A DNA stretch of 64,000 nucleotides. It comes from Neophaeotheca triangularis (lineage: Eukaryota). Of this stretch, positions 24,712 to 33,763 are shown piece after piece. Numbering within the stretch: position 1 is the stretch's first letter; each line of letters begins with the position of its first letter. The position numbers and the translations under genes are program-made. The stretch lies in contig BAAIJX010000005.1 in the NCBI GenBank assembly GCA_054600435.1, positions 496,001 to 560,000 of the forward strand, read 5' to 3'. The notes under the pieces are model-generated. The model did not search any database. It saw nothing but the letters and a program-made list of their open reading frames with translations, and was not told the origin of the DNA.

Positions 24712-27270
24712 TTACAGCCTAGCGGAGAACGGCCCCCTCTGCCTGGAAAGCGCCGACTCAGCGCCACCAGCCTCCAGGCCGGCACCGCCCTGCAGCTTCT
24801 TGCCCTGGGGGTCGTACAGCGGGCTGGGGGCGACGGTGGCCGTGATCATGCGGCCAAAGTACATGAGCTCGACGGTATCGCCGGCCTTGTAGCCCGTGGG
24901 CACGTAGGAGAAGGCGAGCGGCTTGCCGACGGCGTAGCCGAAGGAGGCGCTCTTGACGTAGCCGCCGTAGTTCTTGCCGCCGGCGTACAGGGGCTCCTTG
25001 CCGAGGACGACGGAGCGGCCGTCGTTGGGCAGCGTGAGGGTCGTGAAGTGGCGCGCGCACGACCGCTCCAGCTCCGCTAGCCCGTGCTGTCCGATGAAGT
25101 TCTTCTTGCTCTTGCTGATCAGGTGCGCCAGCCCGGCCTCGTAGGGCGTGAACTCGCTCGTCATGTCGGCGAACCACCAGCGCACGCCCTTTTCCATGCG
25201 GAGCGAGTTGAAGGCCGCGCGGCCGGCGGCGATGATGCCCGAGGTCTGGCCCGCTTGCCAGAGAATGTCCCAGAGCCGGAGGCCCGACTCGGCGCTCGCG
25301 TGCAGCTCCCAGCCGAATTCGCCGACGTACGAGGTGCGGATCGCGTTGACGGGGACGCCGCCGATGTTGGCGCGCTTGACGTGGGAGTAGGGCAGGGCTT
25401 TGTCGGAGAAGTCGTCGGTGCTGGCGTTGGCCATGACTTTGCCGGCCAGCGGGCCCCAGAGGCCGATGCAGCAGGTGCTGGTCGTGATGTCGCGGACCTC
25501 GACCCAGCGGGTGCGAGTCTTGTTGGATTGCTCGCGGGCCAGGCGCTGCAGGTAGACAAAGTCCCACGTGTCGACGCGGAGCTGGAAGAAGTCTTGACCC
25601 AGCCGGGCGACGTAGACTTCGCTGCGGAGGTAGCCTGCGGGGTCGAGGAATAGCGAGTGCGTGACGGTGCCGACTTCGCGGTCGACATCGGCTGTGCAGA
25701 CGTATTGCAGCAGGTCGATGGCACCGGGGCCGCTGATTTCGAGCCTGCGGAACGGTGTGAGGTCGAACATGGCCACGCCGGTGCGCGTCTTCCATGCTTC
25801 GGCTGCGACGATGGGAGAGTGGTGCATCGAGGTCCAGGTGTCGCGCTGGGGTTCGTGCCAACTGAGCGGCATGGAGTCGAGAAGCTTGCCGTTGGCTTCG
25901 TACCAATGCGGTCGCTCCCAGGCGGCAGTCTCGAGGAAGTAGGCCCCCATCTCGCGCTGACGGTTGTACCACGGGCTGACTCGGAGGTTGCGGGGCGACT
26001 CTTTCGGCGCCAGGGGGTGGATGATGTCGTAGATCTCGCGGAAGTTCTGCGAGCCTGTCTGGAGGGTGTATTCGGGAGTAGTCTGGATCTCCTCGAACCT
26101 GGCCATCTCGCACTCGGTGACGTCGATCTCGGACTTGCCCTCGGTCAGGATCTGAGCAAGAGCTCGCGCAATACCGGCGCTGTGTGTTACCCAGACGGCC
26201 TCGCCAACCCAGAAGCCATCCAATGTTGGGTGCTGACCGATGAGCGGTCCACCGTCGGGTGTGAAAGAGAACAGGCCGTTGAAGCCGTCCTCAATTTCGG
26301 CACCCTGCATGACTGGCAGAAGCGCCTTGCTCTCCTTCCACGCCGGGTCAAAGTCTTCGGGTGTGAACTCCATCCTCGACGGCATGTTCTTCTCGTTGAC
26401 GTCGGGGCCCGTAACGCCCAGATCGCCAGCCACGACGGGCATTGGCTTGTGGCCGTAGTAGCCGATACCGTACTGGTCGCCGTGTTCGCGGTAGTAGAGG
26501 TCTTGGTCTTGGTGGCGGAGGATGGGAAGGCTTGCGCTGCCGGGAGCGTTCTTGCGGTCTTTGAGTGCTGGGATGGAGCCAGTCTTGACGTACTGGTGGC
26601 CGAGAGGTAGGAGAGGAAGGGGAAGGCCGACCATCTTGCCAACCTCCACACCCCAGAAACCGGCGCAAGAAACGACAATGTCCGCCGAGACCTCCCCGTT
26701 GGGAGTCTGCACACCAGTGACCTTGCCATTGGCTTGGGAAACACCCGTAACAGGCGTGCGATCGAGGTAAGTGACTCCCGCCGCCCGTGTCCGCTCAATG
26801 AGCAGCTGCACAGCTCTGGCAGCCAATGCTAAGCCGTCGCTGGGAATGTGCAATCCTCCATATACCATGTCCTTGTTGAGGAGAGGGTAAAGTCTCAAGC
26901 ACTCTGCGGCGCTGACGATCTTGCTCTCAATGCCCCAAGCATTGGCCCAGCCGTGTTTGCGTTTAAGCTCGTCCAATCTTTGAGGAGTGGTGGCGATCTC
27001 GAGACCGCCGACTTGGTTGAAGCAGTTTTGGCCATCCTTCTCGAGAGCGAGGAGTTTGGCGACTGTGTACTTTGCGAGGTAACTCATGCACTTGGAGGGC
27101 GTCGTCTCAAAGACCAAACCCGGCGCATGTGATGTAGAGCCTCCGGGCATGTTCAGAGGACCCTGCTCGACAACGGTGATGTCCTTCCATCCTCGCTGCA
27201 CGAGCTCGTCTGCAAGGTTGACACCGACAATGCCGGCGCCGATGATGACAACTTTTTGCGAGGACGCCAT
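24712..27270 (-). CDS. Dimethylglycine oxidase/dehydrogenase (FAD domain plus GcvT-like folate domain) with C-terminal PTS1 -ARL
   Basis: 852-aa intronless ORF with a GAGIVG Rossmann motif. GGSTSHAPG has His at residue 48, the covalent FAD site of Arthrobacter DMGO. Also [39 protein letters not shown] and WERPHWY, plus T-protein motifs [10 protein letters not shown] and LRMEKG. Ends FSARL*. Confidence 0.9.
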
Positions 27271-28690
27271 CTTGGGCGAGTAGCCTCGAGCGGGTACTTT
27301 TGGGGAAAGAAGGGTTGGGGGGGAGGGGGTAAAGCAAGGGACAGCAGCAGAAGGGAGGGAGGGAGAGAGGGAGGGAGTTGGGACTGAGTTTACAACAAGA
27401 CCACGGTTGCGTGGGCGCGAGACAATTGTATATAACTATTCTATCACGGAAAGGCCAATCACTGGGCGGGCATTTGCAACAGACATGGATTGATTGAGAC
27501 GAGGATAGCCGCGGTGCGAAAACGGAGGACATGTACCTGATGCCCCAGAAGGGAAGGGTAGAGAGAGGGGGGGGGGAGAGAGGGGGAGAGAGAGAGAGAG
27601 AGGAAGAGAAGAACAAGGGAGCGTCGACTTTCTCCACAATGTTCCTGGACCGCGAACGCTATCAGTACCTACACTAGGCTAGCTAGGTGCCTCGTAGTAG
27701 TAGTCAATCGCACACCTTCTCCACGAAATTGTTGTTGTCGACTCATGCCGCCGGCGCACGAGCACTAGAGAGGCGTGGCGGGCGGTTCATCATATGGGCG
27801 GAATTACTCCACGTTGCGATATCAACAAGAAAAGTTTGTGTGTCCAGATGGAAGTACGAGTTGGTTGTTACTACTGCAGGGCTGGGGGTGTAACTTTCAG
27901 TGGCGGCTCGGATCTGTCGTTTAATTCTTACCTTAGCTTAGGTAGAGATGGCAGATACCTTACCAGATGCCTTACCCGTACTTTGTACACGAGGGACTGC
28001 ATTACCGCTTTTGGACGCAAATCGCATGCTCGACCCCGGATCACCGTTGCCAAGCGTTCGCGCCACAACTTGAAGCCCCCACCGCAGGCGCTGCAGCTTT
28101 CTTTGATGACTACAGAGAACACAACAACCTCACCTCTCCACAATAATCTGTATGACGGCCGGCCCTGCCTTCTGTCGCATTCCTGTTCTACTTTTGGCAG
28201 TACATCTACATCTCCCTTACCCTACCTTACCTCCCGACTGTTGTCTACCCCCCCAAGATCAAGTCAAGCCTGGGCTATCTCCCCAGTCCCTAATCAAGCT
28301 TACCTATCGCGTCCGCCCTCTCCTGCCCACGCGTCAGCTAGGCGTCGCTCGAGCCATGCATGGATGCTTGTGATCATTATTGTGACTGATCTGATGAATC
28401 CCATCATCACCAGCTGCAGCCTATTATTGTTATTATTGTGGCAACCCAAGTCGATCGGTGTGTCAAGGCTTCCTTTCTGTGGTATTGCAGTGTTGCAGTG
28501 ACGGCATCAAGCATGACTACCTACCTACCTTACCTAACCTAGTACCTTACACCACTACCATCATGGCCCCCAGGCCCGGGATGAGGCATCTTGATCGCGG
28601 TGCCATCCCTTGGAAGGACCAAGAAAAACAGCCCTCAAAAGAAAAACAGTGATATTTGCAATTCCGAACACAAGCCACACACAGAACAAT

Positions 28691-32103: not shown

Positions 32104-32278
32104 GTGTCGTGTGCGTCTGAATTGCCGCTCGCAATAAATATCATAGAGAGCTAGGTTCGCTGCTGCTGCCGACGCCCTTCCCATCACTTCACACTCGCTC
32201 GCCTTCCATCATCCCTCTTCCTTGTCCCTCGTGTGCTTTCCTCCCTTGCCTCTTACTCCCCAAAAGCAGTCCGCAATC

Positions 32279-33763
32279 ATGCAAACTTCCTCAGGCAGCG
32301 CATCGTACTCGTACCTCATTGTCGGCGCAGGCGTTTTCGGCGTCTCCACCGCTTACCACCTGATCAAGAAGTTCCCCGATGCTTCTGTGACCATTGTTGA
32401 CAGAGATGCCTTTGACGCTGACAGCCGTGTCGCGGCCTCGTGGGACTGGAACAAGGTGGTGCGCGCCGACTACGATGACCTAGTCTACTGCCGCTTGGGC
32501 ATTGAGTCGCAGGATGTCTTCAACTCGGACCCTCTGTGGAAGCCTTACTTCCACCAGACGGGCATTTACTGGACCTGCCGGGGTGACTACGCGCAGCAGG
32601 TCATTGACAACTACAAGAAGCTCGGCAGGAAGGCGGACTTGGCCGCCATTCCCGTGGAGGAGGCGAAGAGGATGTTTGGCGGGCTCTTTGACTCGGCCGA
32701 CTACGAGGGTGTCAAGGAAGTGCTTGTCAACAAGACCAGTGGGTGGGCTGCTGCCGGCGACTGCTTGATTGCCATCACCCGCGAGTGCCTCAAGCTCGGC
32801 GTCAAGTACGTCCAGGCTGAGGTTTCTTCTCTGCAATTCGACCAGCGCGGCAAGTGCAAGGGTCTGCGCACAACCAACGGCGAGTTCATTTCCGCCTCTC
32901 ACACCATCCTCTGCACGGGTGCGTACACACCGAAGCTGTTGGAGCTCAGCGCCGAGGCGAGTGGCAAAGACGATCTCCGTGCGGACGACAGAATAGTTGC
33001 CGGCGGCATCACCACTGGCATGACCACCCTGGACGAACCCACTCACGAGAAGTTCGCCGCCATGCCCGTCGGTGTTCAGGGCTACAGCGCACAGCAAGGT
33101 AAGCGTCGAACACCGCTCAATTGCTCTAGCGAGTTTTTCCTAACCTCAAAAAACTTTTAGGACCCTTCATTGGCAGCTTGCCCCCAACCAAGGACCGCGA
33201 GCTCAAGTGGTGGTCGCAGACCATCTTCACAAACACAAAAGAGGTCCTTCCCGGCCGACAAATCTCCATGCCCCCGGCGAAACCAGACTACGGACAGTGG
33301 GACGTGCCACTTCAATTGCAGGCAGGCATCAAACACGCCAACAAGGTTTTCTACGGCGACAAGGGTGCCAACTGGCAAATGACCAAGCACCGTATCTGCT
33401 GGTAAGTCCTCATCCACTCTCACAGTCCAAAGGCGCCGCACAAGCCTCAACAACACGACAAGAGCACCCAACACTAACCTCTCCACCCACAGGGACGCCT
33501 TCACCTCCTCCGCCGACTTCATCATCTCCCCCCACGCCGCGAGCCAAGGCCTCTTCGTCGCCACCTGCGGCAACTTCCACGGCTGGAAGTTCTTCCCCGT
33601 CCTCGGCAAATACATTGTGCAAATGCTCGAGGGCACTTTGGAGCCCGAGTTGCAGCAGAAATGGGCCTGGAACCGCGCGAGACCCGACCCTTGCCTCAAC
33701 CCCGATTACCCTCGCTGGGAGATGAACACGGTGCTCGAGGACAAGCCTAGAGCGAGGTTGTAG
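32279..33763 (+). CDS. Monomeric sarcosine oxidase / L-pipecolate oxidase / fructosyl-amine oxidase family flavoprotein with C-terminal PTS1 -ARL
   Basis: Exons 32279-33098, 33161-33401 and 33493-33763. Motifs IVGAGVFGVSTAYHL, AASWDWNKVVRADY, ILCTGAYT and RICWDAFT (Cys at the covalent-flavin position), plus DFIISPH and CGNFHGWKFFPVLG. Ends DKPRARL*. Confidence 0.9.

Follow-up and report, generated by a model that had tools for sequence, protein, structure and literature searches.

A conserved cluster of dimethylglycine oxidase, Rieske oxygenase and amine oxidase genes in Neophaeotheca triangularis as a candidate route from glycine betaine to glycine

In a 64,000-nucleotide stretch of the Neophaeotheca triangularis genome (GenBank assembly GCA_054600435.1, contig BAAIJX010000005.1, positions 496,001 to 560,000 of the forward strand; hereafter the window), three neighbouring genes encode a dimethylglycine oxidase (DMGO), the alpha subunit of a Rieske non-haem-iron oxygenase, and an amine oxidase. 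The window is fungal, with a G+C content of about 52-61% and spliceosomal introns. We propose, as the reading that we consider on balance probable, that the three genes form a cluster converting glycine betaine to dimethylglycine, sarcosine and finally glycine, which would make up the lower half of choline breakdown in filamentous ascomycetes; we infer every substrate, localisation and electron donor in this scheme. The genes, named G1, G2 and G3 below, and the spacers between them are as follows, in coordinates of the window.

27270..24712, minus strand: G1, dimethylglycine oxidase; a single exon of 852 amino acids (aa), defined by the open reading frame (ORF) and start codon.
29321..30589, plus strand: G2, Rieske non-haem-iron oxygenase alpha subunit; a single exon of 422 aa.
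32279..33098, 33161..33401 and 33493..33763, plus strand: G3, amine oxidase of the fructosyl-amine/sarcosine-oxidase family; 443 aa, splice model.
32279..33098, plus strand: exon 1 of G3, the FAD-binding part; Pfam DAO at 8.4e-26, donor site backed by RNA contigs.
33161..33401, plus strand: exon 2 of G3; splice model, both borders backed by RNA-contig joints from runs X4 and X5.
33493..33763, plus strand: exon 3 of G3, ending in -ARL, a tripeptide resembling a peroxisomal targeting signal of type 1 (PTS1); splice model, joint backed by RNA contigs.
27271..29320, no strand: spacer of 2050 nt that separates the divergent genes G1 and G2 and is presumed to hold their common promoter region.
30590..32278, no strand: spacer between G2 and G3, 1689 nt; a low-complexity His/Pro-rich stretch lies at about 30990-31070.

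All three genes are covered by contigs of two metatranscriptome runs at 95-99% match, including 25644-25975 and 26490-26654 on G1 and 29255-30417 on G2, and the RNA contigs skip exactly both predicted introns of G3, of 62 and 91 nt, each GT..AG. As assembled contigs these data indicate presence and splicing, not expression level; both spacers are free of them, which we do not take as a sign that the spacers are silent. Gene models, Pfam domains and RNA contigs agree on the block described in an earlier note on this DNA, namely a DMGO gene on the minus strand, a divergent Rieske gene, and a third oxidase gene on the plus strand. The note's further statement that no other gene lies between them also stands in that no ORF in either spacer, including a 265-aa stop-to-stop ORF at 27704-28498, has a Pfam match. 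The low-complexity part of the G2-G3 spacer shows His and Pro runs in one frame over about 30950-31100, and 30993-31070 was treated as a repeat in read mapping.

The identity of G1 anchors the proposal. Its Pfam architecture of DAO, FAO_M, GCV_T and GCV_T_C comprises all four domains of DMGO, and G1 residues 1-828 match the Arthrobacter enzyme (1pj5) over its full length with 1156 bits, a match that fixes dimethylglycine as a pathway intermediate. From its sequence G1 is predicted to act on dimethylglycine and to capture the methyl carbon in a folate-dependent manner. His48, within the motif GGSTSHAPG, occupies what we take to be the covalent flavin site of DMGO. A mitochondrial dimethylglycine dehydrogenase was rejected as an identity for G1, with 354 bits against 1156 for DMGO.

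G2 carries the Pfam domains Rieske and Ring_hydroxyl_A and has all of the Rieske Cys/His ligands, the His-His-Asp iron triad and the bridging Glu; C94, H96, C114, H117, E217, H220, H225 and D325 are invariant or nearly so in alignment A1 and align with residues of carnitine monooxygenase CntA. CntA (6y8j) is its best solved relative, at 126 bits over residues 28-338, followed by Stc2 at 99 bits. The best NCBIfam match is the GbcA equivalog NF058607, with 138.2 bits against a cutoff of 670 and an alignment limited to residues 24-228. When 86 full-length library relatives were labelled with NCBIfam at E 1e-60, a single sub-threshold GbcA match was the only outcome, and none of the 86 reached the cutoff of 670, the best scoring 206 bits. 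Quaternary-amine Rieske oxygenases have been divided into group Va (CntA, choline monooxygenases and OxyBAC) and group Vb (the N-demethylases GbcA, BmoA and Stc2), which differ at CntA position 203: the residue is aromatic in Va, where it holds the trimethylammonium group, and Asn in Vb (PMC7948474, in part). Tyr215 of G2 (NWKILADNYNECYHC) aligns with Tyr203 of CntA (NWKVIVDNYMECYHC), where Stc2 (3vca) has Asn (NWKLVWENNRECYHC), and by sequence G2 therefore bears the signature of group Va and not that of the GbcA/BmoA type. Tyr or Phe is found at this position in 54 of the 65 library relatives with a readable motif. In the HMMER alignment of G2 with CntA, Y203, E205, H208, H213 and D323 are kept and the polar substrate contacts Y225, N270 and Y295, like the contact Y315, are identical, while F258 and F319 of CntA are unmatched. 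The earlier note had assigned the Rieske enzyme to the GbcA/BmoA demethylases, which is contradicted by the score of 138 against 670 bits, by CntA as best solved match, and by Tyr where Stc2, GbcA and BmoA have Asn; it was right that automatic annotation would call it a choline monooxygenase (CMO), as homologues are named 'Choline monooxygenase, chloroplastic'. Two Rhodobacteraceae relatives of G2 (L089 and L102; about 28% identity) each have a choline sulfatase gene directly downstream, and genes for BKACE, 3-hydroxyacyl-CoA dehydrogenase, short-chain dehydrogenase and aldehyde dehydrogenase close by; these putative catabolic neighbourhoods fit a quaternary-amine theme for the wider G2 family.

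The class of G2 bears on an alternative in which the enzyme acts on choline and the betaine step is encoded elsewhere. G2 would then either resemble yeast Cmo1 and form trimethylamine and glycolaldehyde, or resemble plant CMO and form betaine aldehyde. We regard this as unlikely. The Tyr signature is that of the CntA/CMO group (PMC7948474, in part), and one member of the fungal CMO-like family is Cmo1, a protein required for growth on choline and thought to yield trimethylamine and glycolaldehyde (PMC5816127 and PMC6157903, both in part). The fungal CMO-like proteins, however, are without the aromatic box and Glu proposed for choline binding in true CMOs (PMC6157903, in part). G2 has paralogues not linked to DMGO, which could correspond to Cmo1, and a choline-acting G2 would leave the repeated, rearrangement-tolerant linkage to DMGO described below without an explanation.

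G3 has the Pfam domain DAO. The best PDB match of its first exon is Amadoriase II (3djd), with 79 bits, against 18.7 bits for monomeric sarcosine oxidase (MSOX; 3bhf), and its third exon aligns with the C-terminal motif ATxxxxHxxK...GKY.V..LEG of fructosyl peptide oxidases. The NCBIfam model soxA_mon scores 27.7 bits against a cutoff of 480, which places G3 outside MSOX proper. An orthologue of Amadoriase II was rejected as an identity, the match being only 79 bits. The earlier note had called G3 a sarcosine-oxidase-family enzyme; G3 does have the DAO fold of this wider superfamily, and its closer affinity is to fructosyl-amine oxidases (FAOX) and not to MSOX.

The breadth of this family, which oxidises many secondary amines, suits a different alternative, in which G2 acts on carnitine, gamma-butyrobetaine, proline betaine or a fungal betaine and the two oxidases handle the derived N-methyl amino acids instead of the glycine series. 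That CntA is the closest solved relative of G2, with its carboxylate and hydroxyl contacts aligned as identical residues, also agrees with it. We judge it distinctly improbable: G1 is about 60-64% identical to bacterial DMGOs, too close for a shift of substrate to be expected, the counterpart cluster in Aspergillus nidulans responds to choline (see below), and cleavage of the CntA type would release trimethylamine, which neither oxidase is known to use.

The three genes are grouped in other fungi more often than chance would allow, and they constitute a real conserved unit. A comparison of the kind that the earlier note had called for showed linkage in several named Pezizomycotina genomes, as judged from the locus tags of homologue-search matches for each protein, and, between the Rieske orthologue and DMGO, in most informative metagenome loci. 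Consecutive tags were found in Acrodontium crateriforme (R9X50_00601400, G3-like; 00601500, Rieske; 00601600, DMGO), Vermiconidia calcicola (LTR37_013651, DMGO; 013652, Rieske) and Cosmosporella sp. (Fc.00g056880, G3-like; 056890, Rieske), and pairs of cluster genes lie on equal-sized contigs in Zopfia, Cadophora, Rhizodiscina and Cladophialophora immunda. A metagenome scan with G2 returned 80 loci, or 66 distinct ones at 98% DNA identity, on contigs that are fungal by their neighbours (for example AA9 and Zn2Cys6 factors); 24 were informative, the criterion being a flank of 8 kb or more upstream, or of 5 kb or more upstream together with 2.5 kb or more downstream. In 17 of these 24 the Rieske protein shares 55% identity or more with G2; 13 of the 17 carry DMGO, 6 a G3 homologue and 5 both, whereas the 7 loci below 55% identity have neither. 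The difference in DMGO linkage (13/17 vs 0/7) gives a one-sided Fisher p of about 0.001, a value that overstates independence given the phylogenetic relatedness of the loci. A quick tree of the Rieske proteins places all loci labelled as DMGO-linked, with the window and the named linked genes, in one clade, supported at 99 by the Shimodaira-Hasegawa-like approximate likelihood ratio test (SH-aLRT), and unlinked paralogues in separate clades; SH-aLRT was the only support measure, and the outgroups raised long-branch warnings.

Order and strand vary within this unit. DMGO is divergent from the Rieske gene in most loci and co-directional in L025, L045, L063 and L068, the gap between the two is about 1.6-2.05 kb in most linked metagenome loci, and the G3 homologue lies either between them or downstream. 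A shuffled order with proximity retained is what selection for proximity would be expected to produce, and not inherited order alone. Further genes in the metagenome loci include a Zn2Cys6 factor with a gene of the pyridoxal phosphate (PLP)-dependent serine/threonine dehydratase type (L017:12438-16281), a PLP-dependent dehydratase-type gene (L045:8091-9157), a GMC oxidoreductase that is perhaps choline oxidase-like (L034:13199-14794) and a class-V aminotransferase (L003:12587-13888). L025, which in the Rieske tree wrongly went without the DMGO-linked label though it bears DMGO 2 kb upstream, has a Rieske gene nearly identical to that of L028/L029 (tree distance about 0.03), and L028 has no DMGO within 10 kb; Vermiconidia holds two near-identical Rieske copies. 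Both cases suggest recent duplication or rearrangement.

It is highly improbable, in our estimate, that the three genes serve no single pathway and are nitrogen-scavenging genes that share only a location and a regulator. Linkage is incomplete and the neighbouring genes differ among loci, as such an arrangement would allow; yet it does not sit well with the 13/17 against 0/7 contrast in DMGO linkage, with the retention of proximity through changes of gene order, or with expression in A. nidulans, where a four-gene block is co-regulated and its flanks behave otherwise. These A. nidulans genes are consecutive and encode an N,N-dimethylglycine oxidase (AN8654), a C6 transcription factor (AN8655), a Rieske protein (AN8656) and a fructosyl amino acid oxidase (AN8657); the Zn2Cys6 factor in L017 parallels AN8655. 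From its neighbours, and from the position of Aspergillus sequences inside the orthologue clade, we infer that AN8656 is the orthologue of G2. The expression values below are triplicate log2 means from a microarray study in which A. nidulans was grown with choline chloride or the ionic liquid [C2mim]Cl (PMC4830055, supplementary files 1 and 2).

AN8654: control 8.51, choline 12.85 (20-fold), [C2mim]Cl 6.14.
AN8655: control 9.26, choline 10.51 (2.4-fold), [C2mim]Cl 5.59.
AN8656: control 10.18, choline 13.97 (14-fold), [C2mim]Cl 4.42.
AN8657: control 10.42, choline 13.43 (8-fold), [C2mim]Cl 6.28.
AN8653 (flank): control 4.23, choline 5.23.
AN8652 (flank): control 8.27, choline 5.51.

All four genes of the block, AN8654 to AN8657, rise on choline and fall in [C2mim]Cl, and the flanking AN8653 and AN8652 follow another pattern; for AN8656 the authors' table gives a logFC of 3.79 with an adjusted P of 6.7e-7 (PMC4830055). 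The co-regulation supposed in the earlier note is thus seen for the A. nidulans counterpart. The betaine aldehyde dehydrogenase gene AN1430 rose 2.5-fold on choline and AN7364, at 1.26-fold, was not induced; mycelial betaine accumulates on choline (PMC4830055, in part). As far as the cited part of that paper goes, its text mentions AN8654 and AN1430 alone. A full-text search turned up the names AN8654 to AN8657 only there and in a suberin study, which lists AN8656 among poorly characterised induced genes. Induction of AN8656 by choline itself is also what would be expected if G2 acted on choline. Loss of choline oxidase alone, however, is said to abolish growth of A. fumigatus on choline, which argues against a second choline-consuming route there.

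On the betaine-to-glycine reading, choline would reach the cluster as betaine, since in Aspergillus choline is converted to betaine by choline oxidase and betaine aldehyde dehydrogenase (PMC12807369, in part, citing Lambou 2013). G2, with O2 and with two electrons supplied by a reductase whose gene lies elsewhere, would hydroxylate an N-methyl group of glycine betaine and thereby form dimethylglycine and formaldehyde; G1 would oxidise dimethylglycine to sarcosine, and G3 would oxidise sarcosine to glycine. G1 and G3, H2O2-forming flavoproteins that end in -ARL, would work in peroxisomes, and G2 in the cytosol. As the most economical reading we assign G2 to betaine: its proposed reaction would yield dimethylglycine, on which the firmly identified DMGO acts. 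The retention in G2 of the CntA residues that bind the carboxylate end of carnitine also counts for this assignment. The hydroxylated C4 of gamma-butyrobetaine and the N-methyl carbon of glycine betaine are each three bonds from the carboxylate carbon, and given this equal distance the conserved anchor could set a betaine methyl over the iron.

Several findings weigh against a betaine demethylase in a three-gene pathway. The group Va signature of G2 is one of them: in the cited part of PMC7948474 the named characterised members of Va cleave C-N bonds or oxidise choline, and no N-demethylating Va enzyme is listed. The need for Cmo1, a member of the same fungal family, for growth on choline is a second, and a third is a published statement that no fungal CMO-like protein has been characterised biochemically (PMC6157903, in part). 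In A. nidulans another Rieske gene outside the cluster, AN10836, is 9-fold up on choline and 8.9-fold down in [C2mim]Cl, and choline induction cannot in any case separate a choline enzyme from a betaine enzyme. AN10836 is a candidate Cmo1-like paralogue, and it and the unlinked paralogue clades could hold the Cmo1-like activity and leave the DMGO-linked Rieske protein for betaine. A search for FNR- and ferredoxin-type domains found no reductase among 41 ORFs of the window or the 62 flank ORFs of at least 170 aa at 12 linked fungal loci. By its sequence the third enzyme is a FAOX-family member of the wider MSOX/DAO superfamily, nearer to fructosyl-amine oxidases than to MSOX. Linkage has its exceptions: the DMGO and G3-like tags of Cyphellophora europaea are about 600 numbers apart, the listed G3-like gene of Vermiconidia sits on a different contig, and 4 of the 17 orthologue loci (L002, L028/L029, L053 and L060) have no DMGO in up to 10 kb; L060 has G3 and, at the contig end 10 kb off, a 141-aa DMGO fragment that we left uncounted. 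DMGO is found at none of the 80 closest bacterial Rieske loci, where two weak GcvT-like matches were the only signal. Finally, 61 of the 120 best DMGO matches, many named fungi included, end in -LRG as bacterial enzymes do, without a peroxisomal signal of the kind found on G1.

The C-termini carry the proposed division between compartments. The consensus of PTS1 is a C-terminal (S/A/P/H)-(K/R)-L, to which the -ARL ends of both G1 and G3 conform. SKL, AKL, PRL or ARL ends 18 of 19 full-length G3 homologues. Among the 120 best DMGO matches, ARL ends 23, SRL 7, HRL 6 and AKL 3, and 40 in total have ARL, SRL, HRL, AKL or PRL. In the DMGO tree, 6 of the 7 named fungal proteins with a C-terminal extension share the subclade of the window (97 SH-aLRT), in which the ends include SRL and ARL, while four of the proteins have HLL, SML, ALL or SLL instead; a Tolypocladium protein ending in HRL, the seventh, lies apart. 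These distributions suggest that the peroxisomal signal of DMGO was added after the gene was acquired. G2 ends differently, in ...DFCSNLEAC...EQLVW, within the conserved tail of the Rieske family, D(I/V)(D/E)FC.GL.C...(L/A)(A/V)W (30500-30589 of the window), and the final residue is aromatic in 98 of 120 G2 homologues (W 65, F 26, Y 7). Choline monooxygenase proteins have a conserved C-terminal Trp, a type of signal that guides clients to the cytosolic iron-sulfur assembly (CIA) targeting complex (preprint 10.1101/2024.01.15.575444, in part). Because its conserved aromatic C-terminus, here Trp, is of this CIA-directing kind, G2 is proposed to be cytosolic, and a cytosolic Rieske step followed by peroxisomal oxidase steps is plausible from the termini.

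The genes also appear to differ in origin. A DMGO match at E 1e-150 or better, with identities of 35-60%, was found in 68 of 401 sampled Actinomycetota genomes, a tally that alone includes the unpublished genomes G123 and G271, and G1 is about as similar to DMGOs from actinobacterial Microlunatus metagenome-assembled genomes (MAGs; 64%) as to those from other classes of fungi (62-64%). A quick tree with 38 rows unites the window's G1, 17 named fungal proteins and four close relatives in one 22-row clade (99 SH-aLRT), whose sister is the Microlunatus MAG pair (97) and then G012 (100), with 13 other actinobacterial sequences outside. The tree has a midpoint root only, the sister sequences come from MAGs, and the bacterial sampling is of Actinomycetota only. 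Nesting of the fungal clade among actinobacterial sequences fits a single transfer from an actinobacterium to filamentous ascomycetes, and internal branching that is out of step with the fungal classes hints that the gene later moved between fungi. The Rieske gene was not co-transferred with the bacterial DMGO, since the nearest bacterial relatives of G2 are 27-33% identical to it and DMGO is missing (0/80) from the closest bacterial Rieske loci. We therefore suggest, tentatively and at a little under even confidence, that a Rieske oxygenase of the CntA/CMO subgroup became a betaine N-demethylase independently of GbcA/BmoA and was joined to an actinobacterial DMGO, which gained a peroxisomal signal in some lineages, and to a PTS1-bearing sarcosine oxidase of the FAOX family, to give a compartmentalised pathway.

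The genes on either side of the cluster belong to unrelated Pfam families, as the earlier note had read them, and are outside the proposed unit.

20845..23828, plus strand: left flank, RSN1/OSCA-type channel gene; Pfam RSN1_TM, PHM7_cyt, RSN1_7TM and PHM7_ext.
34118..37423, plus strand: right flank, telomerase reverse transcriptase (TERT) gene; Pfam Telomerase_RBD and RVT_1.

An amino-acid transporter gene of the Aa_trans family lies at 50403-52622 on the minus strand, 17 kb from the cluster.

Choline and glycine betaine abound in soil, on plants and in hosts, where they can serve as sources of nitrogen and carbon. A full-text search, with subscription journals largely outside it, found no paper that describes the cluster or assigns a fungal enzyme to the step from betaine to dimethylglycine; the enzymes for N-methylglycine use in budding yeasts were described as unidentified in 2019 (PMC7033051), and a preprint on betaine reductase covers betaine degradation in fungi only by pointing to the general pathway (10.1101/559534). 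From bacteria both the enzyme families and the logic of the pathway are already known. The subgroup to which the first enzyme belongs would be new, as would the genes' mixed origin and the compartment signals. If the proposal is true, it would fill in the betaine-to-glycine part of choline catabolism in filamentous fungi, and a correct function, opposite in direction, would be given to the many fungal genes whose present label is 'choline monooxygenase, chloroplastic' or 'naphthalene dioxygenase'. It would also mean a second, independent origin of betaine N-demethylation within the Rieske oxygenases, and would be a clear example of how a gene from bacteria joined a metabolic cluster of fungi and had its product redirected to peroxisomes. 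Through its A. nidulans counterpart the proposal can be tested directly by genetics.

The nearest known system is the bacterial sequence of GbcAB or BmoAB, DgcAB or DMGO, and sarcosine oxidase, with which the fungal cluster shares the same proposed three-step logic, a Rieske first step and a close homologue of DMGO. It differs in that the fungal Rieske protein is of another subgroup (Tyr for Asn; 138/670 bits) with no adjacent reductase found, in that a monomeric FAOX-family oxidase bearing PTS1 takes the last place, and not SoxBDAG or MSOX, and in that the genes are separately transcribed and one contains introns. Taken singly, G1 matches the four domains of the Arthrobacter globiformis DMGO (1pj5) along its whole length, but resides in a fungal genome and has a 20-residue C-terminal extension ending in -ARL. 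G2 has in common with CntA (6y8j) the motif DNY.ECYHC with Tyr203, Glu205, His208 and His213, together with Asp323, but is not its orthologue, has a fungal C-terminal extension, and shows a linkage to DMGO that is unseen in close bacterial relatives. With yeast Cmo1 and the fungal CMO-like proteins, G2 shares a Rieske domain, a catalytic domain of the cd08883 type and a C-terminus that ends in an aromatic residue; whereas Cmo1, of which the Rieske tree contains no named yeast representative, is tied genetically to a choline/trimethylamine route in the parts of the sources cited above, the G2 orthologue group is tied physically to DMGO. G3, like the fungal FAOX enzymes (Amadoriase II, 3djd) and MSOX, is a DAO-fold flavoprotein amine oxidase with the shared C-terminal motif, but it belongs to a separate subfamily in which PTS1 is near-universal and whose A. 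nidulans counterpart is induced by choline.

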